Source: an uncultured Planctomycetaceae bacterium (GTDB lineage Bacteria > Planctomycetota > Planctomycetia > Isosphaerales > Isosphaeraceae). From it: 64,000 nucleotides of DNA. Of this stretch, positions 45,618 to 64,000 are shown in pieces. The stretch lies in NCBI GenBank assembly GCA_963833985.1, contig CAWIAD010000002.1, positions 2,016,001 to 2,080,000 on the forward strand. Reading direction: 5' to 3'. The first letter of the stretch is position 1, and every line of letters starts with the position of its first letter. The position numbers and the translations under genes were made by a program. The notes beneath the pieces were generated by a model. The model was given only the letters and a program-made list of their open reading frames with translations, was not told where the DNA came from and ran no database searches.

Positions 45618-45788
45618 GGGGAAACCCTCTTTGCCGCATCCGGGCCTCTTACGGAATCTCCTGCCAACATCTTACACGCTCCGGCCATGGGCGTGAATTC
45701 GACAGCTTCCGCAGTCACCATTGAAGCCGGAAAGGCAGACGATGTGGTGGCGGCTGGACCATCGAAGGCGTCGTCGCCGCTCAGCTCG

Positions 45789-45815
45789 TGACCGGGTTCC
45801 GGTAGAAGCCGGTCA
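45789..45815 (-). terminator. Hairpin just downstream of tRNA-Ser
   Basis: TGACCGGgTTC..GAAgCCGGTCA inverted repeat 12 bp after the tRNA 3' end; no clear U-tract. Confidence 0.45.
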
Positions 45816-45826
45816 AATCATGGAAG

Positions 45827-45914
45827 CGGAGGAGGTGGGATTCGAACCCACGGTACCCCGGAGGGGTACACCGGTTTTCGAGACCGGCCGTTTCAACCAC
45901 TCAGGCACCCCTCC
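45827..45914 (-). tRNA. tRNA-Ser(CGA), CCA not encoded
   Basis: GGAGGGG/CTCCTCC-G acceptor, anticodon arm CCGGT-CTCGAAA-ACCGG, long variable arm, GGTTCGAATCC T-arm. Confidence 0.95.
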
Positions 45915-46006
45915 GGACACTGGAAGCCGTGGCCGGGCCCGGGCTTTCCCGTGAATGCACTGCGCCAGACGGTAGGTTTCCCGATATCCATTGGAGTTGC
46001 TGGCGT

Positions 46007-46738: not shown

Positions 46739-46947
46739 GGGGAAACCCTCTTTGCCGCATCCGGGCCTCTTACGGAATCTCCTGCCAACATCTTACACGC
46801 TCCGGCCATGGGCGTGAATTCGACAGCTTCCGCAGTCACCATTGAAGCCGGAAAGGCAGACGATGTGGTGGCGGCTGGACCATCGAAGGCGTCGTCGCCG
46901 CTCAGCTCGAGACCGAGTTCCGGTAGAAGCCGGTCAAATCATGGAAG

Positions 46948-47008
46948 CGGAGGAGGTGGGATTCAAACCCACGGTACCCCGGAGGGGTACACCGGTTTTC
47001 GAGACCGG
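46948..47008 (-). other. 3'-portion copy of tRNA-Ser (att-like site bounding the island)
   Basis: 61 bp matching 45827-45887 with one T-loop substitution; identity ends at the start of the anticodon stem, where composition changes. Confidence 0.85.
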
Positions 47009-47065
47009 ACACCTCATCCCCTAAGTACCAATGATAGCAACGACTTGAGTTCCAGGCAATCCGAG

Positions 47066-47086
47066 TGTTGCACCGATTGTTGCACC
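47066..47086. promoter_or_regulatory. Candidate integrase arm-type sites
   Basis: TGTTGCACC twice (47066-47074, 47078-47086), about 60 bp inside the att-like boundary. Confidence 0.5.
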
Positions 47087-47276
47087 CAAACGCAAGATTT
47101 GCCCACATTCCCCTCGGATCTCCAAGCCGTCGTTAGGGCCTGGTCAGGCCTTCCCGCTCATGTTCGTGAAACGATTTTGACGCTCGTTGTCGTCGCAGGT
47201 ACGTGTCAGGATCCCACGTCATGACCTGCCGAACGCTACCCTCATCAACCTTCGCGAGCAAGGGGTACCTAGCATC

Positions 47277-48125
47277 ATGGAACTCGCAGTACTCATCCAG
47301 GCCTTCGAACCGATCATGGATCCTACGGGCGAAGCCTACATTCAGGTCTGCACTAAAGGAGCGATCGAGCCCATTCAACTACCACTGGAAGCTCTCCCAG
47401 CTCGACGCCTCATAAGGGCCGAACTGTCCAGGATGCTGGGGGGAGTACTCCCAACGGATCATCAGACCCGCAGCTGCATGGATGTCCTTTGGGCTTGGGC
47501 GTTCTACGGGAACCGCACGGTGGCCGCGTTGAGCCTCGAATACCTGTTAACTTACGATCCCGTCGCTCAAGCAATCATGGCTCTTTACAAGAAAGGCGGT
47601 GCGAAACAGCCGGCAAAACCACTCCTGTCCACCTTGGCCAGAATCGCCAAAATGGAAGACATCGACATCACAAAAGGGAATTGGCCTGCCAACGAGGACG
47701 CCTTGGGCTGCCGACTGAGAGCCTTCGTCGAGCCATTCGCGAAAGCGGGTATTGCGATTACGTACGACTATAAGGCTCGGCCACGGACTTGGTGCATTCC
47801 TCCGAGGATTCGACCAAGTGGCGTAAGTGACAGCAAAGTGTCGGATGCAACTGCCCACCACGTAATGGATTCCGCCTCACCAGACACTTTGGTCCCCTCC
47901 TCAGGAACCCCCCTACCACAAGTGACATGGCATGTCGCATCGGTAGCCACAGAATCTGCTCGGAGCCAGGAGGATCAGGAAATGGATCTCCTCACGAACG
48001 GCTCGGAATTGCCGCGGAGTAACTCATGGCCGAGCTTGGGAACAGACGCCACCCACGAGCATGACCGGGACGATGAGATACCGTCAGACGAGGAGATCCA
48101 ACACCTTTGGGAGACCACTCGATGA
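47277..48125 (+). CDS. Hypothetical protein resembling non-catalytic flanking domains of mobile-element primase/helicases
   Basis: WPANEDALGCRLR..GIAI winged-helix-like segment; acidic low-complexity tail; ATGA overlap with the next gene; start uncertain. Confidence 0.6.
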   Translation: MELAVLIQAFEPIMDPTGEAYIQVCTKGAIEPIQLPLEALPARRLIRAELSRMLGGVLPTDHQTRSCMDVLWAWAFYGNRTVAALSLEYLLTYDPVAQAIMALYKKGGAKQPAKPLLSTLARIAKMEDIDITKGNWPANEDALGCRLRAFVEPFAKAGIAITYDYKARPRTWCIPPRIRPSGVSDSKVSDATAHHVMDSASPDTLVPSSGTPLPQVTWHVASVATESARSQEDQEMDLLTNGSELPRSNSWPSLGTDATHEHDRDDEIPSDEEIQHLWETTR

Positions 48126-48964
48126 CCGTTCAGCAAAAACCACTTATCACTGCCAAAGAGGCTGAGACTGAAATCCCAGATCTCGAGGCGATGTTTCTGC
48201 CTGATAACCTACGCCGATACTTGGAGACGCGGCTGAACAACCCTCCTGAAAATGATGCCAACCTCCTGATCGAGGGAGACCCTGGAACTGGGAAAACAAG
48301 CGTCGAGATCGCCTTGATCCGACGACGACTGAACAATCCGAAACTCTTCAGCGGGGACTTCGAGGAGATCGTACAGGAGCCGGGCAACGAGGCATTGAAC
48401 GAATACGATGCCCGGTTCTTCCAGACAAAAACATATGGTGGTATCTATGTTTTTGTAAGAATCGACGGAGGTAGTGAAAAGAGAGTCTGTCTCGAGGAGA
48501 AAGTCCAAGACGTCATTTGGAGCCAAGGCGACCACAAGTTCGTTCTCCTGGATGAGGCAGGAGAGCTCTTCTTCCGAGGAATGGAAGAGTGCCTGCGTCC
48601 TTTACTCACACACCCCCGAGTAACCACGTACGCGAATGCCCAGAACTTTCACAGCAAGCGGAGAACGGACAAAAAGGCGGAGGAAGAAGCCCGACTGATC
48701 GCATTCCTGCGACGTTTTACGCACCGGTTCCACATGACGAACCCCACGCCCGATCAGCTCACTCGACTGCTGATCCGCCGTATGAAGCATTGGAGGATTG
48801 AGTTGGACCATCCATCCACACTTCGTCTATTGGTTGAAAAGTCCGAGTGTGTCGTGGGCTATGCCATACGTCCGCTGATTCGGGCTATCGACGATCCTGA
48901 TGGACGACGAATGCTTACTCGGAGAATCGTCGAGGAAGCTGACGTCAATCCGCTGCTCGGCTGA
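48122..48964 (+). CDS. AAA+ ATPase, clamp-loader/RFC-like
   Basis: NLLIEGDPGTGKTS (Walker A), KFVLLDEA (Walker B), AFLRRF (Arg finger), helical lid. Confidence 0.75.
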   Translation: MTVQQKPLITAKEAETEIPDLEAMFLPDNLRRYLETRLNNPPENDANLLIEGDPGTGKTSVEIALIRRRLNNPKLFSGDFEEIVQEPGNEALNEYDARFFQTKTYGGIYVFVRIDGGSEKRVCLEEKVQDVIWSQGDHKFVLLDEAGELFFRGMEECLRPLLTHPRVTTYANAQNFHSKRRTDKKAEEEARLIAFLRRFTHRFHMTNPTPDQLTRLLIRRMKHWRIELDHPSTLRLLVEKSECVVGYAIRPLIRAIDDPDGRRMLTRRIVEEADVNPLLG

Positions 48965-49152
48965 TCGCCATCAGGTAACTCTACATAAATAGTTACATAT
49001 ATCTATTCAATGGCTAGCATCAATGTGCGGCCCAAAGGCTCACGAGCAGATTCCAGTCTCGCCGAGAGCAATATCAAGCAACTAATGATATTGGGATTCA
49101 TTTGGGGGTATGGATTGAAGAGTTGAATTCATACCCTTGGGAACCCAAGACC

Positions 49153-51474
49153 ATGTGCATTCCGCAAGAACGTCCCACTAATGATGGGAACCAGACCGAA
49201 GGAACCAACCCTGCTAGTCCATCCCTCCCTCGGACGCGAGACGGTCGGATCAAGTCGCGTCTCTCCTGGGAGGAGAAGCTCCAGATCCTCGACCCTCATT
49301 CAGCTCCCAAGGCAACCGAAGCTCGCCTGATCGAGTTCGCGAAGCTTCTTGCGTTCCGGGTCTCAAAAGCATCAATTACCAAGGTCGGAAAAGGTCCCCG
49401 TGCCTGGACCTCTCTGGTCGTTCCATTGACTCTTCTCCACATCGCTCGCCATCTCCTGGCGGATCAAGTTCCGACTCTGCCTCCCCAATGGATCGCCTCA
49501 CGGAGCTTATCGACCAGCGTTTTGATGGCGATTGATGTCGACTCGGACAGGACTCCCGGAGCCATGCTTAATGCCAAACGCGATTTGCTCCGAGATCAGA
49601 CGATGAAACCAATCGAGGCCCCTGACGACCCTCTCAGACAGCAAGTTCTCTCAAAGCCTGCGGATTACAAAGCTCCCTTCGCTCAGCGGAACCGAGAAGT
49701 GCTTTCTGCCCTCAGACTCTTAGGACTGAATCCGAGAAATCCAAGAGAGGTGTTGGTCCAGCACACCCCGTCGGGGGGTAGGCATTATTATGTATTCTTC
49801 GACACACCCAATCACCTTGATCAGTACCGAGCCTTGCTCGAAGCTGCGGGACTAAGGCACATCCCCGGTCAGATAGAGTTCTTTCCATCTACGTCTCAGG
49901 GTCTGCGGCTTCCATTTGGCTTCATACCCGGGAGGACACACGACCCCACGGCCTGGATTCAATTCATCGACGACTTCTCGAATGGCCGGATTCGTAGATT
50001 CTCACTGCAAACCCTTTACGAGAACCTGACGCGAAGAACTGAGACTTCAAATCTTGATCAGGAACCTTCGGATCGGCAAAGCAGACCCACCAAACCAAAA
50101 TCAGGCTCGGAGATCTCTGAGGGAAACCGGATCTTACATGGAACACCGAAGCATGTCCGGGTGCGGCCAGCACCGCTGACTGAGCCCCCTGGGCTCTCGA
50201 TGGAACCTTCCTTAGTCGAGCATTCGGCCGACCATTACCTACGGATCATCCAGAACCGCCCGCAGTCTCGAGAGGAGGCGAAGATTCTCTGGAAAGCCGG
50301 GATCCAGATATTCGGTACGCGGACTCAGATCCTCAAGCACTTGGCCGCCCACCTGATCTGGTTCAAAAACGTGTCTTCCGATCAGGCCGCCAAGTTGCTG
50401 ACCCAATGGGCCATGGATCCTCGACACCAGAGCCGGGACATTCAATCTGATCTGCGTGATGGCACTGCCAAGGTGACAGGCCAGATTGCTGAGATTTGTC
50501 GTTGGCATGGCGAACGAAAGGCGTCTCCGAATTTACAGGTCCAGCCGTCAGTCGATTCTCGGCCTCGCTTCGCTCCTTCGGAGCTTTGTGCCCTACACGA
50601 CGCTATTCAGTCGGTACCACCCAACGAGCGAAGAGATCTGAGTCACTTTCTTCTTAGCTTTCTGGGTTTTGCCAAGTCCCATGGGAAGCCGGCTGAAGAC
50701 GGATCCGGTTGGATTGCTTCAGCGGATGTAAAGGCGGTGATACGGCGGTGGCCCGGTTGCCAACATATGAACTATAGATATCGAATGCAGCTTGCAATGG
50801 CCGCCCGGGTATTCACGTTGGTCAAAGAGAAATGGCAGCGTCCAGGTGGCGGAGGAAGACCCAGAACCTACCTGTTGAATGTTCCAATAACACCGTCAGA
50901 AGCCTGGACACAAAGTTACGAGATGGCTTTGAAATCCCTCATAAGCATCACCTCACCGCAACATCCAACAGAGGAAGAAAGAACCAGGGACCATGTCTCA
51001 AGTTTCCCACGCGAATTCATCGACGAGAGAAGATTCGACGACATCAACTGGCACCCCGACGAGCATTCCGTTGACAAGGGACCTCTTTATCAGAGGAGTG
51101 CCCAGGGAACTCTGGGAGAGGCTTCACATCAACGCAATCCAGAGCGGACTCAGACTGAAAAACTATCTGATCCGCCTCCTGAAGGATGCCCAACCATTCC
51201 CACCGGAATAGGAATGCGGAGCTCACGGCGACATTTGCAGGCTTGCCAAGCCGATCTACGCCGATTTGGACTCAATTCAGAACCTCACCGGGAATTACCG
51301 ACACCGATTGTAGACCGGTCTGTCAATATGGAATCCATGAAGCAGGCACTACTGAATCTTCGAACCACCTACATTGAAGCACGTCTCAGGAATGAGGGGC
51401 TTGCCAACTTGGAACGTCCTACTCCACAAGTTCCCGTGAACGACTCGAAAGACGACACGACAAGAGGCCCATGA
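49153..51474 (+). CDS. Archaeo-eukaryotic primase (AEP)/prim-pol replication protein with PriCT-like domain
   Basis: MAIDVD (DxD), TPSGGRHYYVFF (His motif), IEFFP...GLRLPFG; GTR..IL..LA PriCT-like helix; RPRTY wing-like end; the last ~160 aa look unstructured. Confidence 0.75.
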   Translation: MCIPQERPTNDGNQTEGTNPASPSLPRTRDGRIKSRLSWEEKLQILDPHSAPKATEARLIEFAKLLAFRVSKASITKVGKGPRAWTSLVVPLTLLHIARHLLADQVPTLPPQWIASRSLSTSVLMAIDVDSDRTPGAMLNAKRDLLRDQTMKPIEAPDDPLRQQVLSKPADYKAPFAQRNREVLSALRLLGLNPRNPREVLVQHTPSGGRHYYVFFDTPNHLDQYRALLEAAGLRHIPGQIEFFPSTSQGLRLPFGFIPGRTHDPTAWIQFIDDFSNGRIRRFSLQTLYENLTRRTETSNLDQEPSDRQSRPTKPKSGSEISEGNRILHGTPKHVRVRPAPLTEPPGLSMEPSLVEHSADHYLRIIQNRPQSREEAKILWKAGIQIFGTRTQILKHLAAHLIWFKNVSSDQAAKLLTQWAMDPRHQSRDIQSDLRDGTAKVTGQIAEICRWHGERKASPNLQVQPSVDSRPRFAPSELCALHDAIQSVPPNERRDLSHFLLSFLGFAKSHGKPAEDGSGWIASADVKAVIRRWPGCQHMNYRYRMQLAMAARVFTLVKEKWQRPGGGGRPRTYLLNVPITPSEAWTQSYEMALKSLISITSPQHPTEEERTRDHVSSFPREFIDERRFDDINWHPDEHSVDKGPLYQRSAQGTLGEASHQRNPERTQTEKLSDPPPEGCPTIPTGIGMRSSRRHLQACQADLRRFGLNSEPHRELPTPIVDRSVNMESMKQALLNLRTTYIEARLRNEGLANLERPTPQVPVNDSKDDTTRGP
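50993..51211 (+). CDS. Ribbon-helix-helix-like protein nested in another frame of the primase ORF tail
   Basis: DLFIRGVPRELWERLHINAIQSGLRLKNYLIRLL; similar to 53418..53642. Confidence 0.65.
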   Translation: MSQVSHANSSTREDSTTSTGTPTSIPLTRDLFIRGVPRELWERLHINAIQSGLRLKNYLIRLLKDAQPFPPE

Positions 51475-52279
51475 GCCTGGCGTTAACTTGTCACATAGAC
51501 TAATCAAGTCATCCGAAACTCGGGGCTCCTAAAGTCCCAATTAAGGTCATCGCCATGCTCCGCATGGGGCGTTGGAGTCTGGGTCTCAGCCTTAGAGGTC
51601 CATCCCTCCATTCGTAATACGATAGCTTATGAATGCTGATGCTTTGAGTTTCGAGTGGTTCTTAAGATCCTCTTCACGCGAAGCCTACAGGCTGTTTACC
51701 TCGGATAGTTCGCCCTGTGCCAGTGCTACTGAGTGTCTGATTGGGATTCTCAATTCAGTATTCGATCCAGTTCTACATCTTCATCGTTCTAATTCTGCTC
51801 ACGAGCAGGCCCCGTTTTCTCATCCCGGACACGTAATTGTATGGACCTTCTTGTTCCTCTAGGACTGAAAGGACTACCCCCAGTCTAAAGACCATGGGCT
51901 ACCGTGAAATTCCTCCCTCTGCAATTCAAACCTCACCCGGTAACAGAACCTGACGTCTCAAGTCCGTGATCAAATCCGCCAGCGAAAACCTCTACACTTC
52001 ATCCCCTTGATAGTCTGAATGGTCTGGTTCACTTGTATTCCCCGGTCTCCACTGACGAGCAGAGGCTTGAGGTCCTGCTGGGTCGCGTCAACGAATTGCA
52101 ACACCTTCACATACAAGCAACCGCCTGTATCCGTTGCCACCAGCATCGAGATGCTAGTAGTTGACGCAGGTTGATGTGGGAGAACCACGAGAGGCTTTCG
52201 ATTCCGGCAGTAACTGAAAACTACCCGGGGTATCACAAAGGTGAAACTATTCTTGATTCTTCAGTCTCCAGGAGGAACC

Positions 52280-52468
52280 ATGCCCGAGACATCTAAACCC
52301 AAGAGTACCGACAAGCAGTCTGTTGCTGTCCTGAAGGGCAGTCCTGAGTTCCATGCTTGGTTCAGTCGATTCCAGCGACAATTAAGGCTCCCCGCCGCCA
52401 TTCTTCTGGACGCTGCCATAGCGGAGCTCGCCCGATCAAAGGGCTTCGAGGACCCACCCCCTCGTTGA
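52280..52468 (+). CDS. Small RHH-like DNA-binding protein (paralog A1)
   Basis: GGAGG RBS; VAVLKGSPEFHAWF...AAILLDAAIAELARSKGFEDPPPR. Confidence 0.7.
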   Translation: MPETSKPKSTDKQSVAVLKGSPEFHAWFSRFQRQLRLPAAILLDAAIAELARSKGFEDPPPR

Positions 52469-52702
52469 GCAGATCAGCTTCGGAGGACCCCGGCTCTATC
52501 GACGAACCTGAGATCCACAGCTGAAATCGTTTGATCATGCATCGTGAGCCAGAAAACACTTCCGTGCGAGCGATATGAGGATATCAAAGCAACGTAATCA
52601 ATATTCGGGATGATCGTAGATACGGAAATCTCAGTCGGAAGAACGGATGCCATTTCCTGACCGAGTGAGTTCAGAAGGGTGATCGCCCGTGAGGCCACAA
52701 CA

Positions 52703-53245
52703 ATGAATAATCTCCTTGAATATCTCCTGGACGCATACAACGTCCCACTGTCTCAACGACATAGAGCACTTGACCAGGATCAGTTGATCAAGATCGACGA
52801 TGAGAATAGTGGAGACGTCTCTTATCTGTTCTGCCAGATTCACGCTAGACTTCCTGATCCGCACGGCAAAGAGATCATTCTCACGTTTGACAAAGCTCCC
52901 TTCGGTCTAGCTGCAAGAGAACTAATCATCGAGCGAGACGGGACGATCGAGGAAACCTGGTTAGGTCCGATCGTCACGCTCCCTATCGACATCAAGAGCA
53001 TATCCTTCCTGAGAAAACTTGCCCGGACGGTTCGCAACACAGTCGGTCACAACCGTAGTTACGCGGACCCCAACTGGAAGTGGCTCTGCCCCCGCACTGC
53101 AACTTCCCTGGAACAGTTCGCGGACATCGTCATGGCGTATCGCAGTAAACGAAGGGCCGAGCTGCAGATAAATGACTCTCATGCTCGTCACCGTGCTGTC
53201 GGTGACCAAGCAACTGGGTTTGGAACTTCTTGCTTTGAAGGATGA
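52703..53245 (+). CDS. Hypothetical protein
   Basis: GAGG RBS, ATG, globular composition; family not recognised. Confidence 0.65.
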   Translation: MNNLLEYLLDAYNVPLSQRHRALDQDQLIKIDDENSGDVSYLFCQIHARLPDPHGKEIILTFDKAPFGLAARELIIERDGTIEETWLGPIVTLPIDIKSISFLRKLARTVRNTVGHNRSYADPNWKWLCPRTATSLEQFADIVMAYRSKRRAELQINDSHARHRAVGDQATGFGTSCFEG

Positions 53246-53417
53246 CCCTGCTTCATCGAGGTCGCCCGCAGTCGCCGAGAGTATCAGGTTCTCCATGCAT
53301 GCTCTTATTGGAGGTGAACGTTAGGCAATTCCACACGCGAGTGTGAGCATGTTGAATCGGGTAAATGAACTCAATGAAACCAACGTTCTCAATGCGATCA
53401 ATTAAACCGGAGCGGCA

Positions 53418-53642
53418 ATGAGTCTCAGGGATTTAAGCACGGCTTCCGCCACCTCGGTCGAAGCCCCTACGAAGCACAGGACTCCTGCTGGGCACAGAGT
53501 CATTCACCTGGTGGTTCCTGAATCCACGTTCGTCCATGTTCACAAGCAGGCACTGGAGTCCGGAATGCGGTTCTCGCAATACATGAATAAGTTCCTCTTG
53601 GAGGCATTCCCTTACTCATCTGGGCAAGGGTCCGCCTCCTGA
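53418..53642 (+). CDS. Ribbon-helix-helix-like protein
   Basis: GGAG RBS; VIHLVVPESTFVHVHKQALESGMRFSQYMNKFL. Confidence 0.65.
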   Translation: MSLRDLSTASATSVEAPTKHRTPAGHRVIHLVVPESTFVHVHKQALESGMRFSQYMNKFLLEAFPYSSGQGSAS

Positions 53643-53711
53643 ACAATGCCCAGTGCCGGGATGGCCGAGCACAACTTCGTCGATCCGGTTCAACAGAGAA
53701 AGGAAGTACAT

Positions 53712-54473
53712 ATGGCAAAACCTATTCACGAGCGGTCTCGCTACTACGACCTGGGTGACGATTTCGAACTGGCTTTGAGACGTGCTAAGCATGACGACTC
53801 CATTACCTTGCACTTACATAAGGACCTCATGTCTCAAATAGGCGTCGCTTTCGGCGATCGCGTGAACCTCTTTAGTGATGCCGGTGTTTTCCCCGATTCA
53901 ATTGCAATCGGCAAGGTGGATTACGGAGGTTCCAAGTATCGTCGCACTGCCCCGACTCGAGGTTCGGCACAGTTTCCACTGCCCAGAGAAAAGGTCAAGC
54001 AGTTCTTCCCCGACGATCAACGGCTCTATGTCCCCTTGAGACACGAGGTCGAGGATAGCCGACTGCTTTGGTTCTCACTTCCTCCCGGCAAGACCGCGAT
54101 AGAACTGGAGGACAACACCGCGTCCTCATCTCCGACACCAAGCACTAGCATCACTTCGGGCCAGGCTGCTCAAAACGAGATGGACTCGGAGGATGGTCTC
54201 CCCAGCGATCAGTCAGATTTGGAGGGCTCGGTAGATCGAACAGAACAGGAGAGCACTTGCACTACGGAGTGGGAGGAGTTTGAGGACGAAGCGGTCGCCC
54301 TCGACTGGGATGATTCTGAGATTGAAACCAACCCATTCTCATCATTCGACTCAGCTGACGCGGATACGACCGACGCTCAGCTCACGGCAAAGAGCGTCAT
54401 CGATGACACTTCGCTCGCTTCCACAACATCACAGGAAGATAACCAGCAATGTACGTTCGTGACGGGTCGGTAA
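53712..54473 (+). CDS. Hypothetical protein with strongly acidic, Ser/Thr-rich C-terminal half
   Basis: AAGGA RBS; globular N-terminus with LMSQIGVAFGDRVNL (AbrB/MazE-like beta-hairpin pattern); D/E-rich tail. Confidence 0.65.
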   Translation: MAKPIHERSRYYDLGDDFELALRRAKHDDSITLHLHKDLMSQIGVAFGDRVNLFSDAGVFPDSIAIGKVDYGGSKYRRTAPTRGSAQFPLPREKVKQFFPDDQRLYVPLRHEVEDSRLLWFSLPPGKTAIELEDNTASSSPTPSTSITSGQAAQNEMDSEDGLPSDQSDLEGSVDRTEQESTCTTEWEEFEDEAVALDWDDSEIETNPFSSFDSADADTTDAQLTAKSVIDDTSLASTTSQEDNQQCTFVTGR

Positions 54474-54671
54474 GGATACTGCTGATCTAGTTCGAACAGC
54501 GGTCGCCTAATCTCACGCACGCTATTCAATGCCTCGGTTCTGTGGGTCCCTCCCCCAGGTGAAATGCACAGATTCCGTCCAGATCCCTGGCCTTGAAGGG
54601 AACGGCGTGGGCTCTGAGGCAGCGGGGATCAAGGACATGGTTTGCTTTGACAAGCAACAAGGAAATCCACG

Positions 54672-55451
54672 ATGAAAAGGAACTTGAAGTTTCTTCTCGG
54701 CCTCGAGTGATCTCCGGAAGACCTAGTCCTCACCCTAATCACGCGAAAAGATCACTCAGCTCTTGGTTCCCTTGGTTTTCGGGAGGATCCCGTGAGAGAC
54801 GATTCAACTTACCATTCACAGATCGAGCTCACGCCAATTGCGATCTGCTTGACGCTTCCTCATGGAGGGCCTGGTGTTGTCCGACTCGCGGCTAGCAACC
54901 CCTTCCGAGAGGTAGAGGACGATCGCCTCGAAGTTCAGGTCGTCAGTCCCAGTGATTGTTGGCTCGTACGTACTCGTCAATCATCTTGGCTCCTGCGGAT
55001 GTTGGACGTCGAGAAGGGGGTTTTCGAGGTAGAGCTAACGATTGAGTTGGTAAACCATCTCATCAAACTCGGTAATCCTGGATACGAACGTCTCTATCCA
55101 TTTCCCAGGTTACGAAGTACGGGACGCCCGAAAATGGGTCAGTGCCGTGGCCTGTTGGCCTCTGCTCCATGGGGTCTCATGCTCATCGACCTGGAAGGCT
55201 CGCCACGGGATAAAACCTACGTGGATTGCGGGCAGGTTTTCAGTCCGTTATGGATCAAGCTAGCGTCTTGTCCCAGCTCGAGGTTTTGGGTAGCTCTGAT
55301 CTCCTCTGACAAGCTGGAGACCTTCAGAGTACCATTCCCTAAATTGATCAATACGACTCTGTCTCATGCAGTCCTGCAAGCGTCCCAGTCGGATGAAGGT
55401 GCTGACTACTTCCCAAGAATCGCTGACGAGTTGGATGAGTCTGCCCTGTGA
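54672..55451 (+). pseudogene. Hypothetical gene with early in-frame TGA
   Basis: AAGGA + ATG at 54672 is in frame with ORF 54792..55451 but interrupted by TGA at 54708-54710. Confidence 0.5.
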
Positions 55452-55519
55452 CGTTTTCGTCGAATTCCGGTCCGAATTCTGGTTTCGAGACTATTCATCT
55501 GACATCGGAGAATTAAGAA

Positions 55520-55795
55520 ATGCCGCGAACGTTCTGGACCCCGGAACGAGACCAACTTCTTCGAGACAAGTATCCGCTCATTGGACCAAAACTCACCGCG
55601 AGTCTCTTCGGAACATCTCGCCGGTCAATCATCAATCGGGCCCACCGACTGGGTGTGAGAGTACCGTATCCCAAGAATCGGGCCAGCCCCAGCTTTCCTC
55701 CCAAGTCCTGGTCATCGGCACAAAAACAATTGGCCACGGTCCTACTCGGTCTCTTTCAATCCGCCTCGATCACCCACTCGAACCGCTTGCTCTAG
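55520..55795 (+). CDS. GcrA-N/Myb-like HTH protein
   Basis: GGAG RBS; WTPERDQLL...ASLFGTSRRSIINRAHRLGV. Confidence 0.7.
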   Translation: MPRTFWTPERDQLLRDKYPLIGPKLTASLFGTSRRSIINRAHRLGVRVPYPKNRASPSFPPKSWSSAQKQLATVLLGLFQSASITHSNRLL

Positions 55796-56010
55796 CTCAA
55801 GTCCAGCCGAGGAGCACAGAACCGTTTGAGACCGCGTCCGTAGTTCTCGTCGCTCTAGGACGCGATATTCAGCCAAGGTCTGCCAAGGTCGGGGTCCTTA
55901 TGGTTGAGGTAGTTACTAGAACCTGAAAACCGAGCCTCCCAGGGAAACCCGTTTTATCCGGGGTAGCCAAAACGAAAACGAAAAGGTCCAAGGTTTCCGA
56001 GCGGCAATCC

Positions 56011-56201
56011 ATGCCCGAAACCCAGAAACCCCGAGATACGGAGAGACGGACGATTGCAGCCCTGAAGGGCGGTTCTGAGTTCCATGCCTGGTTTGGTCGC
56101 TTTCAGCAGAAGTTTCGATTGCCGGCCGCCACTCTCCTCGATGTCGCTTACGTGTGGAGCTTTGCAGAGCCCAAGGCTTCGATGAACCACCACCGGGGTG
56201 A
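56011..56201 (+). pseudogene. Frameshifted paralog (A2) of 52280..52468
   Basis: MPETQKP..LKGGSEFHAWFGRFQQKFRLPAATLLD; the shifted frame gives ELCRAQGFDEPPPG*. Confidence 0.7.
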
Positions 56202-56407
56202 TCCCATTTACCTTGGAGTTCTGGGCTCAGCCCTTTGGAGCAATACCAGATCCGACTCCAGACCAATCTCCCAGTCCAAGGCCGAGTATACCTGAGGGAA
56301 CTCGGCCAGGGTCCTACTCGAGCAACACGAGGCCATCACCTCGAGTGTTACGAAGATCTTACTTCCTGTGCCATCCACCCACCGAGAAGTTGAAAACGGA
56401 GAAAGCC

Positions 56408-57103
56408 ATGAGATCCAGGGATCCTGGTATATCCATCCGGTCAGCTGAACAGGGAGGTGTGCTTGTCCAGATGCAAGTGCCCCTGAAGTATGCCCGATGT
56501 ATTGGCATTGATGAACCTCCCATCCATTTGGTTCTTGTGACAACGAGAAAAGGGAAGGAACTCCGCCTGTCCAAGGAGGGTAGTAAGGGGGGCAGGCTCT
56601 TGGCAAGTACGGACAAGATACTCATCGTCGATGACTTCTTGAAGGTCACATTCCATCTCAACGGCCGACAATTCCGGAAAGTAAGACAACTTTGCCCTGA
56701 CTTCATCCCGAGAAGAATTGACTTGGACCATAAGGAGAGAACGCTTCTTCGATATGGCTTGGATGTCTTTGAGGTTGATTACGATGATAAGACGTACCAT
56801 GTGGTTATGATGCACGATCCAGAACTTATCATCGATGAAGATTCAGACGTAGCGGCAATCGTTACTCCGGTGACAAGTGATGGCAAATGGCAAGACGCCG
56901 CCAGCCCGCCAATGTACATCGATTGTACTGGACAACCAACTTGGACTGTGCCCCCGATTGAATACGTCACGGTGCGACCCAAGCAAATCAGATGCACGAC
57001 GCCATACGAATTATCGATCTTCGAAGTAGACCAGACTTCGTGGGATCGCGTTCTGCAGTGGCTGGACGAGAGGGGTGCTCGAGAGCAATCGGAAGGGAAT
57101 TGA
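56408..57103 (+). CDS. Hypothetical protein (paralog B1)
   Basis: GGAG RBS; aligns end to end with 58467..59153. Confidence 0.8.
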   Translation: MRSRDPGISIRSAEQGGVLVQMQVPLKYARCIGIDEPPIHLVLVTTRKGKELRLSKEGSKGGRLLASTDKILIVDDFLKVTFHLNGRQFRKVRQLCPDFIPRRIDLDHKERTLLRYGLDVFEVDYDDKTYHVVMMHDPELIIDEDSDVAAIVTPVTSDGKWQDAASPPMYIDCTGQPTWTVPPIEYVTVRPKQIRCTTPYELSIFEVDQTSWDRVLQWLDERGAREQSEGN

Positions 57104-57150
57104 AATACTGATGAATAAAACGATGCTTTTGTACCTTGCACGAGGAGAAC

Positions 57151-57833
57151 ATGGCCGAGTGAATCTCAATACTAGAAGGGGACACTTCTATCCCACGCGA
57201 AGGTAACTTGTCGTCTGTCGCAGAGGGCCCAGGCTGGTCTTTCGCGTGCTGGAGGACGACCTTCACTTGGGGTATTCGAGCGATTGATGAACTCGATCTG
57301 GAGTGGGACCCAGTAACCTATCAAACATTCCTGGTTAAGATGCCGGTCGGGTATGGAGAGGCAAAGCATGAAGAATGCTGTATCGGCAAGCCAGGTTACG
57401 GGTTTCTGTTTCAGGAATTTTCAATCAGACAACACGTTCAATCACAGGAGATTCCAGCCAAAATCGGCTGCTGATCAAGCCGTTCGGGCGACTTTTCTCT
57501 TTGCGAGCCCCTAAGAGCCATGAGTTTCCTCCTCCTATCAGCGTCGGTGAAGCCGTTTCTCATAACGTCGCTGATAGCGGCTAGGAACATAATGGGATGA
57601 TGTGCTGGTCCGAGAACGCCGGCAGGATCGACTACGTCCAGATCCCGGCAACATTGCTCCAGGACCCCATCCGTAACGGTTGCGAGTTCATAGAATGCGG
57701 CTTGAACCAATGGAACGAGGAACAGAAGGTCCGAATCGCCTCCCATCTTGAAAAAGAACTTCTCAGGCTCACAGATGAGTTCCAGCGAGATGCCTCAGCA
57801 CGCGGAAGTGATGTACTTCCGGTTGCCACTTGA
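57151..57833 (+). pseudogene. Degenerate hypothetical gene
   Basis: GAGGAG RBS + ATG GCC GAG TGA in frame with 57208..57474; pieces 57375..57584 and 57597..57833 share a frame across a TAG. Confidence 0.4.
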
Positions 57834-58466
57834 ATGTTGAAAAACCCGTCAATTATACGGCGGTTCTGATCATCTGAGGTAGAGAACTCTGCCCTCTCGG
57901 CCGGCCTAGCCTCAGCTCGAGAACCAAGAATTGGAACCTGGCCTCCTTCCTCCTTGTTGTCGCCCTGACAACCGTCATCCAATCACATCGACTTTATCAA
58001 CCCACTCTAGCCAGTCATCGGCCCCGGGAATCTCACGATTCCCCAAGGACCGCCTACGTCTCAAAAGCAGTACGCAACCTTCGAGGAGGATGCCCGCTCA
58101 GTCTGTCGCCGGGACCACTAGCATGACGTCGAGCATCGATCATCGACCGTCCAGCTACGATCGAGGAATGACAGGGAGCTGGTCCTCGTCGTGCCGCTGG
58201 ACTTTGTGGCCCGGCAGCGGCTTCTCGACCTACGGCGTGCCGAGGATCGGCAAGTCACGTCGGTAACGATGATATAGCAAAGAATTCCATTCATGTTTCG
58301 GGTATGAGAATTGACGAGAGCAAAGTGTTCTCGTGGGGAGAAATTGCCAAATTCGACCATCATTGCAGATTTGGCCAATTGCACAAACCACACTGATTAC
58401 GGTCCCGGCAGGCTTTCCGAGTGTTTTCTGGCGAATTCCTTTTCCTGCTCTCTTCGGAGATTACCC

Positions 58467-59153
58467 ATGGACTTCTTTGAAGGCGTGATTACTTACCAGC
58501 CACTCAACAAGGGCGGTATGCTAGTTCATTTTACCCTGCCCTTGACGACGGCTAGAGAACAAGGCTGGGATCAAGCTCCGGTCTATTTGACGCTCACGAC
58601 GGCATGCGAAAGCGGCATACGCTTGTCCAAGACTTCTGAGAGGAAGAGTCAAATTGCCGAGGTCGATAAACTGGCCGTGTTCGATGAGATGCTGAGGATT
58701 ACATTCCACTTGAATCATCGACAATTCCGGAAATTGAAATGCCGTACTCGTGGTCTCGTTCCAGACCATTTGGGTCTTACCAGAAATGGGATGGCAATTC
58801 GTCGGATGGGCCTTTACTTCTTCGTCGGTGAGATCCTGGATAGGGAGTGTTTCTTGGTAATTTTACATTACCCCGATTTCGTCATTGATCCAAGTGTGGA
58901 CACCTTAGATTTCTTTAACCCGGTGATAGTCAATGGCGTCTGGCAGAATGATCGTCAGAAGCCGCTGTATGTAGATCGCAACCTAATACCCACGGATTCA
59001 CGCCCGTCAATCGAGTACGTGCAACTGAAGCATAAGAAGATCAAGAGTAAGACAAACCAATTCGCTGTCTTTGAAACAACTGAGGCGTCGTGGGAACGCC
59101 TGAAGCGTTGGGGTGAGGAACGGTCCGCCCGTGAATCCTTAGAATCGAACTGA
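58467..59153 (+). CDS. Hypothetical protein (paralog B2)
   Basis: GGAG RBS; shares GGxLV, RLSK, TFHLNxRQFRK, IEYV, SWxR and ERxARE with B1. Confidence 0.8.
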   Translation: MDFFEGVITYQPLNKGGMLVHFTLPLTTAREQGWDQAPVYLTLTTACESGIRLSKTSERKSQIAEVDKLAVFDEMLRITFHLNHRQFRKLKCRTRGLVPDHLGLTRNGMAIRRMGLYFFVGEILDRECFLVILHYPDFVIDPSVDTLDFFNPVIVNGVWQNDRQKPLYVDRNLIPTDSRPSIEYVQLKHKKIKSKTNQFAVFETTEASWERLKRWGEERSARESLESN

Positions 59154-59654
59154 GCTGCTCCGGCTCTAAAGTGCTACTTGTGATCAAAGTCGAGTCCCTG
59201 CCGACCTGCAATTCAACTAATCCGAGGAAGGTCTCCATTCCAGTAATACAACACCATGCCACAGTTTTCTGTGGTTCTCCGTGGCAATGCCCAGGGCTTA
59301 AGATGCCTCAGTTCATGAATTGACGTCAGAAACGAGTTCTCGCACTCACAACTGAATAACAATCGATAATGGACTTGGGGACCACCCCCAGTGAACTCCT
59401 TCGACTAGTTCCACCACAACCACCGGAGCGATGAAACCGTTACCGTCTTCTGAAAGACTTGGAATTCGGGAAGTATCCGGAGGTCAACCAGTCAGCCTGA
59501 GCAGTGACAGAACTTCCGAAAGAACTGAAGCTGCAATGTGACATGAGATTTCAGAGCAATACGGTTCGAGGCGACGTGGATCTCGCTCAGTCTTAAAGGA
59601 TCGAGATTAAAGAAACAGCTAGTCAGGGAGGTAAGTCGGGAACTCTCTCTTCAG

Positions 59655-60266
59655 GTGGGTCTGAAGTATCCTGCCTCTCAACCGGGTAACGGGGTTTTGG
59701 ATAACTTATCCAAGCACCAAGCTTGTACCAGCATCGATCAGGTACTGGTAAATGCCGCACTCGCCAACCATCACATCCAACATTACCTGTCCGATCCTCC
59801 CCTAAACCGGATCTGGACGCTCGAAGCGATCGATCGGAATCCAAACGTCCTCGTCGAATTTGAGCACGTGACCGTCATTGGAGGGCCCGGGGAATTACTC
59901 GCAACAGCCAAGCACAAGAAATTCGGCCATTTTCTCGGCATCAAACCCCTTGGACTGGACGACCCAGTCCATCCCACTCGCATTCTCTTCATCTACGAGA
60001 TAACCAGCCCCTACAACCGACGCGTTGAGCAACGACGAGCTCTCAAACGGATGCTGGGCCGGCAGCATCGCTCGCTCGTTACCAAAGCCGCCAGGGCCAC
60101 CAACAGAGACTTCCTGAAGTTCGATCTCACTCCTGAAGGGGCCAAGGCAATCAATCGACGCCTCAAACTGGACCCCGGTCGTTTCTGGCGAGTGGCCAAA
60201 GGCAAGGAGTTCCTGGACCTACCAAAACCAGCCCTCCAACTCCTTCTGTTCGATCTCGATCAATGA
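59655..60266 (+). CDS. Hypothetical protein, basic C-terminal half ending in QLLLF
   Basis: 203-aa ORF with globular composition; start uncertain. Confidence 0.65.
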   Translation: MGLKYPASQPGNGVLDNLSKHQACTSIDQVLVNAALANHHIQHYLSDPPLNRIWTLEAIDRNPNVLVEFEHVTVIGGPGELLATAKHKKFGHFLGIKPLGLDDPVHPTRILFIYEITSPYNRRVEQRRALKRMLGRQHRSLVTKAARATNRDFLKFDLTPEGAKAINRRLKLDPGRFWRVAKGKEFLDLPKPALQLLLFDLDQ

Positions 60267-60562
60267 CCCGTTTGGCCCCGGCATGGAATCGGAAGGGGTC
60301 GTCCGGCTGGGCCACGGGGCTTATCGTCTGGGAGTCCAGTCCGACGAATGAATTCGGGGACCTCGATCTAAGTCTCATCAGTCGATCTTGATCTCGCTCC
60401 GCTAGGTCCGACCTGTGTCCCTGGGAGCCGTGAAGTCGGTGCGTCCAGTCCCATTTAAGTCAAAGGCTTGATTCGGACTCCATATCCTGGCAGCAGAAGA
60501 GAGCATTCGGCCCTCTGGCCCCCAGGTCAGCGTGGGTCATCATCTTGCACAGGACCAACTCG

Positions 60563-60898
60563 ATGAAGCCCAAACCCAAGAATGAAGCCAGGCATCGATT
60601 TCTCTATCGCGTCTGGTTGAAGGACTCGAAATGGGTGGTCCTCCGCCACCTTATCGTCAAACAGGGTCCCAAACGGATCGTCATCCGGCCTGATCCCTTC
60701 GATGAATTCAGCGAGGTAACTCGCCGTACGAAGCCCCTCGTTTACTTGGACCGTGACGAGTTTGAACGTAGTGGTTCGGCTTTCAGGATCCCCTTTGGTC
60801 GGCTCTACATCAGCAAAGAGGCGGCACGGTTCGAGGTGGAAATCCGGGCTCTCGAACACCTGGAAGCTCAAGAAGTCGATTCAGACAGTCGGAACTGA
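60563..60898 (+). CDS. Hypothetical basic protein
   Basis: AGGA RBS + ATG; same orientation as neighbours. Confidence 0.55.
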   Translation: MKPKPKNEARHRFLYRVWLKDSKWVVLRHLIVKQGPKRIVIRPDPFDEFSEVTRRTKPLVYLDRDEFERSGSAFRIPFGRLYISKEAARFEVEIRALEHLEAQEVDSDSRN

Positions 60899-61206
60899 TT
60901 CTCGCCCGGGCCGGGCTGAGTTTCCCACACCCGGCCCTCATCGATCCTGAAGGGGCCAATGCAATTCATCGACGTCTCAATCTGAACCCCGGTCGTTCGT
61001 TCGCCTCCGATTGCCACCGGAAAGCTCTTCTTATGTCCAGCTTTGGCGATCCATGAGTCAGTTTTGATGGTCAGGCAATCTGGTGATCTCCGATGCTCAG
61101 GTTCAACTTGTCATGAGATCGACGGCAGGTTGCCTAACCCCGGACCAGATCCGGATTTAAAGTTGCTCGCCTCGAAAACCAGCATCCAATAACAAGGAAT
61201 GGCATA

Positions 61207-61241
61207 AAATCGGATAGAATGGGACTTGAAATCGGATAGAA
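61207..61241. promoter_or_regulatory. Direct-repeat operator candidate
   Basis: AAATCGGATAGAA at 61207-61219 and 61229-61241 (22-bp period) in AT-rich DNA upstream of the HTH gene. Confidence 0.55.
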
Positions 61242-61306
61242 CAGGAATAGAATAACAGTGATGATTGAACTGAGCAACAATACCGGACACCTCAGCCAAG
61301 CAAACC

Positions 61307-62041
61307 ATGAAAGTGCTCCTGATCGAAGAAGTGGCGAACATCCTCCGTTGCTCCGAGCAGGACGTTGTGACCGAGATCGAATCGGGCAAACTCAAGGCCT
61401 TCCGAGTATCAGGGCAGCTGCGGGTGCTCGAAAGCGAACTCCAGTGTTTTGTGTCAGGGACCCCTCCGGTCCAAGCACTACAACCATCTGCCGAACACAC
61501 AGGAGCTAGCATGTCCTCCATCGTCACAGCCGATGCCGTGCTCGTGAAGGATCTGGCAATTCAGGTGGAATCGATGCCTGGTTTCACCTACGTCTGGCCC
61601 GACGGGGAGCCCAATGAATATAAGGACCCCTTGAGCATCACGGTCCAGCAAGGCGATAGGAAGGCCTACTTCATCATCGGGAAGGCGAGATCCCCCAAGA
61701 AGCAGCTCGGTCAGCTGCGGTGGCGTTACAACATCTTTCTGACCTCGACACCACGAAGTGCTCAGGGCCTGATCTCCGTGCTCGACTTTGTAGGCGGCAA
61801 CGAGTTCGATCAGGACCACCTGATGGCGAGCCTGATCCGCCACCGCGACGGGAGCTTGGTGAAGGAGTCCGACGCCATCCCGCCGGAGTACATCGGTTTC
61901 AGGCTCGTCCAGTTCAACAGGATCGTCCATGGCCCCTACGCCCGCAGTGGCCTGGCCGTCGTGGCCCAGAAGGACGACATCGAAACGATGATTCAGCACG
62001 CCGTGATCCGGGCAATTCAAAAGGGATGGCTCAAGTGGTAA
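61307..62041 (+). CDS. Excisionase-like (HTH_17) domain fused to an uncharacterised C-terminal domain
   Basis: LLIEEVANILRCS..V...IESGKLKAFRVSGQLRV.ESEL..F. Confidence 0.8.
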   Translation: MKVLLIEEVANILRCSEQDVVTEIESGKLKAFRVSGQLRVLESELQCFVSGTPPVQALQPSAEHTGASMSSIVTADAVLVKDLAIQVESMPGFTYVWPDGEPNEYKDPLSITVQQGDRKAYFIIGKARSPKKQLGQLRWRYNIFLTSTPRSAQGLISVLDFVGGNEFDQDHLMASLIRHRDGSLVKESDAIPPEYIGFRLVQFNRIVHGPYARSGLAVVAQKDDIETMIQHAVIRAIQKGWLKW

Positions 62042-62118
62042 GCCACTTCCAGGATCTGTCCGTGGCTCGACGCGTCTCTCACCTGGTCCTGTCCACCCTC
62101 TAACCCTGTGAGGCTCGT

Positions 62119-63162
62119 ATGCAGTACACACCAGAGGAATTCATCGACAGGTTCGCAGTTGCCGTAACGTCCTTGGAAAAACACTTCGCCGCTGCCCCGG
62201 ACCGACTCGGGGACGTAAACGTCGAGGCTGAATTGCGAGGTTGGCTAGATGGTAACGACAGGCCGCTACCCTGGGCCGGTTTCGGAGTTACGACCGACGA
62301 GTGGTTCTTCGTCACGACCCTCTATGGTCAAAGGACGCGGCCCCTTCAGAGGGCTTTGATCCGGCGGTATTTCCCGCTCTTCGTTCACGAGGCCGGACGA
62401 GACATCAGGAAGCTCAGTCCCGAACTCACTCGTGATTGGGTCCTGGACCACGACTGGATGAAGCCCCGCCTGTTCCGCATGGCTGCTATCCTCCGTGATC
62501 GGCAGTTGACGATGAAGGCGTACGTCAATCAATTGAGGGAGCTGGAGCAAGGAGCCACAGCGGAGGATCCCACTCCTGCCCTAGATGCCATCGTCAGGGA
62601 CCATCGGGCGTCTGGGTGGAAGACACTCAGTGTGTTCGTACGCGACTGCGTGGGAGGCAACTGCTTCCCAATCGACAGTCGAGTCGAGAAAGAACTTCTA
62701 ACTCGCAGATTGCCAATGGACGAGCGTCAGCTCGTGTCTCTGTCGCTTAGCGTGGGCAGGAACCCAAGGCAAGTCGCCAGGATGTTCTACGAGGCAGGGG
62801 GTGAAGGAGGAGATTTCTCGATGACGAACTTTCGACAATGGAGTTCTCCTGGTTCGCAAGGGAGCCACGTTGCTTTTCCGATGGAACAACCAAAATCGGC
62901 ACCTTTTCCATCAGAGAGGTCGATCATGATCCGCGAATTGACCAGCCTGAAGGGAGCAACATCGGGCTACATCTTGAATCTCTACGGAGGGCCGACGGGG
63001 AAGATCGGCAATGTTGTTCACCCATATGACTGCCCCCATCTGGGAATGATGAAGATACCCCCTCGAAAGATCTGGGGATCCTCCGTTGAAGAGCTGGAGG
63101 AATGGGTCAAAGCCCATGGGGGCCATCTGGATCCAACCACTCCGACATGCGGCAACGTGTGA
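62119..63162 (+). CDS. Hypothetical protein with HhH-GPD (endonuclease III-like) glycosylase motif and His/Cys C-terminal domain
   Basis: GWKTLSVFVRDCVGGNCFPIDSRV parallels the G.KTA......G.....D..V pattern, with catalytic Lys and Asp; C-terminal VHPYDCPHL...TCG. Confidence 0.55.
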   Translation: MQYTPEEFIDRFAVAVTSLEKHFAAAPDRLGDVNVEAELRGWLDGNDRPLPWAGFGVTTDEWFFVTTLYGQRTRPLQRALIRRYFPLFVHEAGRDIRKLSPELTRDWVLDHDWMKPRLFRMAAILRDRQLTMKAYVNQLRELEQGATAEDPTPALDAIVRDHRASGWKTLSVFVRDCVGGNCFPIDSRVEKELLTRRLPMDERQLVSLSLSVGRNPRQVARMFYEAGGEGGDFSMTNFRQWSSPGSQGSHVAFPMEQPKSAPFPSERSIMIRELTSLKGATSGYILNLYGGPTGKIGNVVHPYDCPHLGMMKIPPRKIWGSSVEELEEWVKAHGGHLDPTTPTCGNV

Positions 63163-63558
63163 AACCTCATGGGAAAGCTGGAGGGGCTGATTCATCAGGA
63201 GTCAGCCCCTTCTCCGTGCTCGACGCAATTTCAAGAGCTGCAATGGTCGGCCACGCCCCTAGTCGATGGGCCGCAGACGTCCGAAGGCCCCTGAAGACGA
63301 TAAAGTCGGTCAGAGAATAGGCTCAAGGCCTCGGCCAGCATGTTCGTGCAGTATCGCCTGTCCCATTCCCGCCTAGCTCTTCCTTGAACCGAGGTAGCCC
63401 TGGGCCTCTGACCCATCCACTTCGCACCGATTACATCTTCCAATCAAGAATCGGTCAGCGGAATCTCAATCCCCTCCAACGCGTTCGACCTCACCGCAGG
63501 GTAGTGGTCTCAGGGGCCAAACGCCCTCGATCACTCTCAACGCCGAGGAGTATCAATC

Positions 63559-64000
63559 GTGAGGAACCTGGATGAACTGAAGTCGGAGTGTGCCAGCCAT
63601 GGAATCACCGTCGCGTCTGAGGGGCGTGTAAGTAAAGGGCCCTACATCACTGCCCTGCGAGATCACTTCTGGCAACAGCACCACCATGGACAGCCTTTCC
63701 CGCCCCAGATACACCCCATGCTACTGGGTAAATGGGCCGACCTTGATCCCGCCGAGGTTCAACGAATCGAGGAAGAACCGGGCTGGATAGTCCAACCCAA
63801 ACTGGACGGCGTTCGAGCCCTCATGCACATCGAATCCTCAGGGATCCGGATCACCAGTCGATGTGTCAGCGAGGTCACCTACCGTCTGGGCGAATTTCAG
63901 GACAATCTGCCCCACTTGACGACTGGAATGTCAGGCCTCGAAGGAACGATCCTGGATGGCGAATTGGTCTTTCCGTCATCGACGTTGGACACCGGCAAAA
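63559..64000 (+). CDS. ATP-dependent DNA ligase family protein, 3'-partial (absent from the ORF track)
   Basis: GAGGAG RBS + GTG; my translation gives HPML, WIVQPKLDGVRA (motif I KxDG), ITSR and TILDGELV (motif III); open to the window end. Confidence 0.85.
   Translation, partial: MRNLDELKSECASHGITVASEGRVSKGPYITALRDHFWQQHHHGQPFPPQIHPMLLGKWADLDPAEVQRIEEEPGWIVQPKLDGVRALMHIESSGIRITSRCVSEVTYRLGEFQDNLPHLTTGMSGLEGTILDGELVFPSSTLDTGK

Follow-up and report, generated by a model that had tools for sequence, protein, structure and literature searches.

The window examined here, a stretch of 64,000 nucleotides (C2:2,016,001-2,080,000) from the genome of an uncultured Planctomycetaceae bacterium (G000, 96% complete, contigs C1 and C2), ends within a 73-kb island integrated in a tRNA-Ser(CGA) gene, and we are highly confident that the tyrosine integrase gene of this island is split by its own attachment (att) site. 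A 71-codon C-terminal tail of the integrase lies detached at the left end of the island, inside the window, and would come back into frame on excision. The island is of a known kind with two variant features, namely a class-wide, Mx8-like tail-swapping integrase and an unclassified module in which an archaeo-eukaryotic primase (AEP) gene is overlapped by a ribbon-helix-helix (RHH) gene. An earlier note on this window had drawn attention to the AEP and to the class of element that might carry it; the split integrase is the more unusual feature, and the detached tail, a tRNA copy within a flanking duplication and the defence cargo all go beyond what that note described.

The island spans C2:2,062,946-2,136,076 and is bounded by direct repeats of 63 bp, detected with ARAGORN and BLAST, one being a displaced 3' fragment of tRNA-Ser(CGA) and the other part of an intact copy of the gene 73 kb away (98.4% identity over the repeat). 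The GC content drops from about 0.62-0.67 to 0.51-0.57 at 47 kb of the window and lies at about 0.51-0.60 between the two repeats, compared with 0.65 for the genome. Because two tRNA copies enclose this low-GC interval, the window holds the left quarter (17 kb) of a single island. The att-like fragment, the compositional shift and the co-orientation of the genes, which all lie on the + strand within the window, had been read correctly in the earlier note, and the full tRNA-Ser(CGA), second att copy and integrase that it suggested seeking downstream are all present, the integrase at one end of the island and with its catalytic residues intact. By its gene context the far tRNA copy is the native gene, since all 10 of the same-genus loci fetched retain its upstream flank. 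A matching integrase stands beside the tRNA in only one of these ten, that of G537, as expected of a site that is elsewhere empty; an exact empty allele was not seen among the ten, whose 3' host neighbours vary between species. Nor is the block fixed in relatives more widely, the AEP family being patchy (6 of 251 genomes of the class).

The tRNA copy at window 45826, intact and lying inside a tandem duplication, was considered as the native locus and rejected, as its upstream flank is non-native and the flank kept in the ten relatives belongs to the far copy; it is possibly a second target site. The two Uma2 copies in this duplication differ by 21-bp coiled-coil repeats. At C2:3,125,731 a third tRNA-Ser(CGA) was called, which by eye is not tRNA-like. 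Just outside the right att, two identical 102-bp copies of the tRNA 5' end with its upstream region (C2:2,136,074-2,136,175 and 2,136,665-2,136,766) flank about 490 bp, and relatives match both copies and not the DNA between them.

Table 1. Features of the island and its left flank (window coordinates unless prefixed C2).
Feature	Position	Strand	Remarks
1.1-kb tandem duplication (94.7%) in flank	44839-47008		Uma2 nuclease gene and tRNA-Ser 3' region
Extra intact tRNA-Ser(CGA)	45826-45914		inside the duplication
Left att core	46946-47008	-	3' 63 nt of tRNA-Ser(CGA), ARAGORN and BLAST; on the + strand, codons 430-450 of the integrase frame
Detached integrase C-terminal tail	47009-47224	+	71 codons, in frame on excision
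Tandem 9-bp repeat, 12-bp spacing	47066-47086	+	also in the integrase-side arm, C2:2,135,836-2,135,856
Two-helix motif of tail	about 47117-47188	+	conserved; invariant W and P
ORF312	47187-48125	+	first gene of left-end module, conserved; probable start about 47277; DUF3631-like lead only
Clamp-loader-like AAA+ ATPase	48107-48964	+	285 aa
AEP primase-polymerase domain, helical domain and winged helix	49102-51474	+	790-aa ORF
RHH protein	50993-51211	+	72 aa; overlaps the AEP gene in another frame
Small regulators and unknown genes	52241-61000	+	variable; ORF188, ORF219 and ORF203 common to some related islands
RHH-like genes	52241, 53418 and 56011	+	
GcrA-like helix-turn-helix	55520	+	weak
Paralogous unknown proteins	56198-57103 and 58311-59153	+	35% identical; no family match
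Protein with N-terminal excisionase-type helix-turn-helix	61307-62041	+	PF12728, E 5e-7
347-aa protein	62119-63162	+	helix-hairpin-helix glycosylase-like, weak lead
ATP-dependent DNA ligase	63559-64000 and 683 bases beyond, to C2:2,080,683	+	374 aa; PF01068, E 1e-24
Defence cargo block, beyond the window	C2:2,080,680-2,112,855	-	helicase and PLD pair, DrmD-like SNF2, DrmMI/IIG-like methylase, SF1 helicase, GmrSD, 1786-aa DEAD/MZB helicase
DUF932, PD-(D/E)XK nuclease, second tyrosine recombinase, SIR2, REase-ARP and WYL genes	C2:2,114,124-2,132,804		
Tyrosine integrase	C2:2,134,727-2,136,463	+	reads antisense through the tRNA gene; catalytic residues intact
Intact tRNA-Ser(CGA), native by its context, with right att core	C2:2,136,015-2,136,103		ARAGORN and BLAST

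The integrase frame passes the catalytic residues (R216, K245, H311, R314, H337 and Y347, invariant in an alignment of 11 sequences), crosses a linker and enters the att core at codon 430, the catalytic domain ending about 60 codons and Y347 lying 83 codons before the core. In the integrated form the protein is 578 aa long and its C-terminal part is an antisense read of the tRNA gene; across the excision junction the same frame runs instead into the left end of the island and ends at 521 aa. Compared with the sister element in G537, 10 of the 27 codons of the tail motif differ synonymously only and 3 change the amino acid, with no second-position change; in the linker before it the corresponding counts are 4 and 11 of 34 codons. 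This codon-position pattern places the constraint on the protein and not on the DNA, and is strong evidence that the detached tail evolves under protein-level selection. The tandem 9-bp repeats found in both arms are likely, from their arrangement, to be arm-type integrase sites, and a shared tandem repeat at 11-12 bp spacing occurs in 28 of 40 other integrase-tail pairs, a count that has no chance control. The tail profile gave only chance matches against PDB sequences, and the single-sequence fold of P0095, a natural two-motif protein, was uninformative (mean pLDDT 42.7). The tail may resemble the two-helix dimer hooks of XRE/EspR regulators.

Of the 251 genomes of the class, 149 contain a match to the tail motif, as do 9,231 clusters of the 50% library (E<=0.001). 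The best 150 cluster matches are proteins of 32-361 aa in which the motif lies within 15 residues of the C terminus in 135 of the 147 re-detected; 3 of 19 motif matches inspected by eye were unrelated low-complexity repeats. The layout was then assessed across genomes by setting 109 motif matches in 41 well-assembled genomes against integrase matches, and pairing them by contig, strand and order before the frames were known. This gave 40 pairs in 28 genomes, which with the two elements of G000 made 42, of which 2 lacked a core repeat and 40 possessed one (the island under study among them). The tail is in frame with the integrase in 36 of these 40 core-repeat pairs; the frame is open to the core in 38 and stop-free to the motif in 34, while the other two frames are stop-free in only 10 of 80 cases. 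The corresponding binomial value of 1e-13 is overstated, because related genomes are not independent. The targets of the paired elements include Ser, Leu, Cys, Asn, Lys, Arg, Phe and Met tRNAs as well as tmRNA, on either strand.

Natural fusions of the two parts also exist. The motif lies downstream of the integrase in 3 of 53 viral-contig loci, and in all three a single frame runs through the tRNA fragment; in L106 the motif is fused to the integrase with almost no linker, and P0092 and P0140 carry integrase and tail in one frame, these two being partial proteins that could represent tandem elements or assembly junctions. The second element of G000, of 14.5 kb and with the same integrase type, lies at a tRNA-Met gene (G000:C1:1,740,952-1,755,512); a stop precedes its tail motif, which is not in frame, and the element is possibly decayed. 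Motif copies that are paired, facing or in tandem occur in L009, L014/L023, L066, P0094 and P0095, which suggests stacked or remnant elements. In the viral integrases L181, L187, L188 and L217 the frame extends 149-196 aa past the catalytic domain without the motif, and three of the four have a tRNA-like match in the extension; judging from these reading frames, other tail types may exist.

Perhaps the closest parallel is the Myxococcus phage Mx8, in which attP is described as lying within int, so that integration changes the 3' end of the gene without inactivating the enzyme (PMC6070905, PMC4383910); Mx8 and Mx9 are presented as isolated bacterial cases of an att site inside an integrase gene (PMC6070905). 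Like Mx8 Int, the island enzyme is a tyrosine integrase, and its att core falls inside the frame, downstream of the catalytic tyrosine. However, the C terminus of Mx8 Int does not match the tail motif, Mx8 Int is not among the 25 listed of 96 tblastn matches of the island integrase in phage records, and the present layout spans a whole bacterial class, many tRNA targets, and both cryptic islands and viral contigs. In the archaeal suicidal integrases (SSV1, pTN3, pT26-2) the att site also lies within a gene that is partitioned on integration, the catalytic domain being in the detached C-terminal part and both pieces described as inactive (PMC7253208, PMC8371274), and the latter, a review, calls self-disrupting recombinases exclusive to archaea. 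In the island, by contrast, the whole catalytic domain stays on the N-terminal side and only the 71-codon tail is detached. No paper on a planctomycete version of this integrase-tail family was found in literature searches, whose coverage mostly excludes subscription journals, and the main text of PMC12884075 is without mention of planctomycetes.

The second variant feature is the module at the left end, where ORF312, the AAA+ ATPase, the AEP and the RHH gene follow one another. The 790-aa AEP protein has 70 relatives besides itself and no match in Pfam, PHROG, NCBIfam or PDB sequence searches; a single one of 67 family members gives a marginal Prim-Pol match in Pfam. Its identity came from a fold search alone (model mean pLDDT 75.9), in which the matches to the model include the CAPP Prim-Pol domain (Foldseek E 2.7e-6; Z 13.6, rmsd 5.0, 184 aligned), viral primases, LigD polymerase domains and a TOTE-type primase domain. 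The AEP fold carries motifs I-III, with conserved DxD, SGGxH and E241, and the primase call of the earlier note is thereby upheld. Residues 370-456 are helical and resemble PriX (Z 6.4, rmsd 2.5, 73 aligned) and residues 470-597 resemble winged helices (Z up to 7.6), both at middling scores; no PriCT match was found with Pfam in the protein or its family members. The model thus points to a ColE2-like architecture in what appears to be a new sequence family, as judged by Pfam, PHROG, NCBIfam and PDB. The last ~190 aa of the ORF, disordered in the model, overlap the RHH gene. They were considered as a domain and rejected as unconstrained read-through, since the RHH frame is the constrained one (22 synonymous versus 19 changing codons, compared with 4 versus 36 in the AEP frame). 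The RHH profile matches a 44-aa antitoxin (E 6e-4) and Arc (E 0.15), again in line with the earlier note, and the gene comes after the AEP at all 13 distinct genome loci. A search of viral contigs with two patterns turned up no AEP relatives.

The AAA+ ATPase, likewise anticipated, has Walker A and B motifs and a family profile that matches RFC/DnaX best (E 6e-9), a similarity lifted by two distant members, and by this profile it falls in the clamp-loader AAA+ clade. ORF312 may correspond to the terminal domains of a larger helicase-type protein (Atlas lead 0.87). As a block, only ORF312-AAA-AEP-RHH is seen again in related islands, and the 17 kb cannot be treated as the single replication and repair toolkit that the earlier note made of it. 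A tRNA 3' fragment followed by an ORF of about 230 aa, AAA, AEP and RHH, in this order, is found at Ser (here, in G537 and, with an insertion, in L120), Cys (L119) and Pro (L129) tRNAs, with a Phe example (L114) seen by eye, and the module sits directly behind the tRNA 3' fragment in L119, L120, L129 and G537; the AAA gene also precedes the AEP in 2 metagenome loci. At other AEP loci DUF927 or DUF3854 primase-helicases, integrases or restriction systems adjoin the AEP. The tRNA-Cys island L119 has a complete beta-clamp gene (L119:13165-14307) 1 kb downstream of AAA-AEP-RHH, and no beta-clamp gene was found in the 73-kb island. At the same tRNA, G537 has its own versions of the left module (56-76% amino-acid identity) and of the right module (integrase 90%).

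The earlier note had proposed an uncharacterised class of integrative element replicating through an AEP. The AEP itself stands; the claim to an uncharacterised class overstates the case, because att-bounded cryptic elements with AEP genes (PrimPol-PV1 AEPs) at tRNA genes are described in section 11 of PMC5862659, no single toolkit exists, the cargo is mostly defence, and replication is read from architecture. Like those elements, the island combines an AEP gene, att boundaries and a tRNA site with no phage or conjugation genes. The same source describes a helicase-free AEP-PriCT-HTH design (HTH, helix-turn-helix) in ColE2 Rep, RepE/RepS and PrimHYQ, with unwinding by the PriCT-HTH part in ColE2 Rep, and the island protein, by its model, similarly appears to join AEP, helical and HTH domains without a fused helicase. 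Unlike the AEPs of PMC5862659, whose main text lacks the string 'Planctomyc', it has a fixed overlapping RHH gene, a clamp-loader-like ATPase partner and no match in Pfam, PHROG or NCBIfam.

About 55 kb of the island, three quarters of its length, is mostly defence cargo. The 73-kb ORF scans used a greedy ORF set (96 in Pfam, 47 in PHROGs, 43 in PADLOC and 55 in NCBIfam). Among the scanned ORFs there was no capsid, portal, terminase or tail family of the kind that a prophage would carry, with the proviso that highly divergent genes could escape, and no relaxase, coupling protein or VirB4 (Pfam, NCBIfam) to mark an integrative conjugative or mobilisable element; what the earlier note found missing from 17 kb is likewise missing from the ORFs scanned across 73 kb, structural genes downstream of the window included. 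The whole genome gave 0 matches to Terminase_6N and 0 to PF19044. One type IV coupling protein lies outside the island (G000:C1:2,488,795-2,490,090), its gene about 14 kb from a weak integrase match, and this region is a possible mobilisable element that could act as a helper. The cargo is DISARM-like and not shown to be DISARM, because the DrmD-like gene scores 425, short of the curated cut-off of 610, and family scans of the island ORFs brought up no DrmB. With its integrase at the tRNA end, low GC and clustered defence genes, the island resembles tRNA-targeting defence islands (DISARM-like, Druantia/DrmA-like, GmrSD, SIR2, WYL), and at 73 kb it is large compared with the small satellites of the phage-inducible chromosomal island type.

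Within the defence block two + strand genes (L001:10174-12479) include one with an actin/Hsp70-like ATPase domain. The run of DUF932/TIGR03299, ORF202, PD-(D/E)XK nuclease and ORF300, then WYL (L002:18124 to L003:3783), recurs whole or in part in the AEP islands L109, L123 and G537 and is a possible recombination or anti-defence module. In the window, a 53-bp direct repeat (89%; 60131-60183 and 60945-60997, 814 bp apart) flanks a 117-aa ORF, and the paralogous proteins at 56198 and 58311 have a possibly AbrB-like N terminus. The HTH protein and the ligase named in the earlier note are both supported by family matches, and by its domain the former is a candidate directionality factor. The helix-hairpin-helix-GPD label given to the 347-aa protein is no more than a weak lead: it has no family or PDB match, and its nearest named Atlas clusters, Ogg-HhH, lie at only 0.84. 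This protein accompanies the AEP in 0 of 13 genome loci and the ligase does so in 2 of 13.

We tentatively propose the following course of events. The att repeats, the integrase frame across att and the in-frame tail are directly visible. The integrase, probably with the HTH protein at 61307, would excise a circle by way of the tandem arm repeats, and this circle would encode the 521-aa integrase with its tail rejoined in frame. An amphipathic two-helix tail on a long, unconstrained linker probably aids assembly of integrase subunits for integration, and its loss on insertion may lower or redirect activity and so stabilise the island, as reported for Mx8. On the circle, the AEP-helical-winged-helix protein could bind and prime an origin as ColE2-type Reps do, with the overlapping RHH protein presumably controlling the AEP and the clamp-loader-like ATPase perhaps recruiting host replication proteins. 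In the weakest step, the island would travel with a helper phage or another element and the defence cargo would pay its way; helper-dependent travel is most likely because no transfer genes are recognised in the island. Taken as a whole, we consider it fairly probable that the island sits in tRNA-Ser(CGA) with att inside its integrase, that the inserted form is catalytically complete without the tail, that the tail likely favours integration, and that the AEP is predicted to copy the circle. For its parts, a regulatory role of the tail swap is given a slight preference, and the case for the AEP-RHH module acting as a replicon, for which we infer AEP-driven replication from the modelled architecture, is just better than balanced.

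Several observations weigh against this proposal. Four of the 40 core-repeat pairs are out of frame (G512, G456, the tRNA-Met element of G000:C1 and G340, in which the second motif copy of two had been paired), in G428 and G448 a stop precedes the chosen core, and 69 of the 109 tail matches were unpaired and stand outside the frame count. In the viral contigs 50 of 53 integrase relatives lack the motif in a 1.5-kb flank (10 of them with <900 bases), and several related AEP islands (L119 and L129) have a tRNA fragment without it, so the wider clade can do without the tail. Structurally, the AEP domain is most similar to a CRISPR-associated enzyme and not to a Rep, tblastn places the AAA gene ahead of the AEP at only 3 of 13 genome loci (5 with two distant DnaX-like genes), and the sister element in G537 has frameshifts and its ends on different contigs.

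The strongest competitor, which we regard as unlikely and yet serious, is a composite, partly decayed element, built from a phage or satellite remnant and accreted defence modules, in which the AEP no longer replicates anything and integration and excision are passive. The mosaic content, with a second recombinase and a recombinase fragment inside the island, is what such a history would leave, as are the occurrence of the same integrase type in viral contigs, the lack of transfer genes among the scanned ORFs and the likeness of ORF312 to end domains of a larger helicase-type protein. It sits poorly with the intact frames of ORF312, AAA, AEP, RHH and integrase, with the third-codon-position bias of the differences in those compared with G537, and with the recurrence of left and right modules at the same tRNA in G537 and of the left module at other tRNAs.

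Somewhat less probable is that the gene is split as described and the swap has no regulatory effect, the tail being a stability or accessory module and both forms recombining alike. A catalytic domain that is intact and ends well short of the core would allow this, and viral relatives without the motif and elements that have lost the frame would be unsurprising. However, a segment that is unfused while integrated would then have to be kept under strong protein-level constraint and across many tRNA targets, and in the Mx8 precedent the swap alters activity (PMC6070905). Doubtful, and more so, is the view that the AEP does not replicate the island and serves defence or repair instead, either in a CAPP- or TOTE-like manner or by end joining together with the ligase. 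The top structural matches (CAPP, LigD polymerase domains and the TOTE-type primase domain), the ligase near the AEP here and at two other genome loci and the richness in defence genes all accord with it, whereas a C-terminal winged helix and a helical domain like those of replication initiators, the constant RHH partner, and neighbours elsewhere such as DUF927/DUF3854 primase-helicases, a beta clamp and integrases do not. It is very improbable that the motif stands apart from the integrase, as a small protein in its own right or as a DNA site adjoining att: although the top 150 database matches are all short proteins with no full-length integrase and four pairs are out of frame, this reading is contradicted by 36 in-frame pairs with open linkers, the natural fusions (L106, P0092, P0140 and the viral loci) and a codon pattern of protein constraint.

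We thus prefer a split integrase whose tail would be rejoined on excision, beside an AEP module that may replicate the circle. In its boldest form, which we think improbable, integrases across the class, in a family of thousands of clusters, would switch direction by reversible editing of their own gene, with the tethered two-helix tail, carried by the free element only, as a built-in directionality factor, and the island would define a family of self-replicating defence islands with a new AEP-winged-helix initiator and its own clamp-loader-like ATPase. If most genomes of a bacterial class share this layout, it would be a mainstream way to control integration, and about 9,000 clusters of short 'hypothetical proteins' would find their explanation in a split-integrase family. 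The layout also warns that an integrase cloned from an inserted copy will have the wrong C terminus, and it is a source of tools for site-specific integration in planctomycetes. With the AEP-RHH module comes an unclassified candidate replicon, and the island as a whole shows how defence systems may move within the planctomycete phylum.

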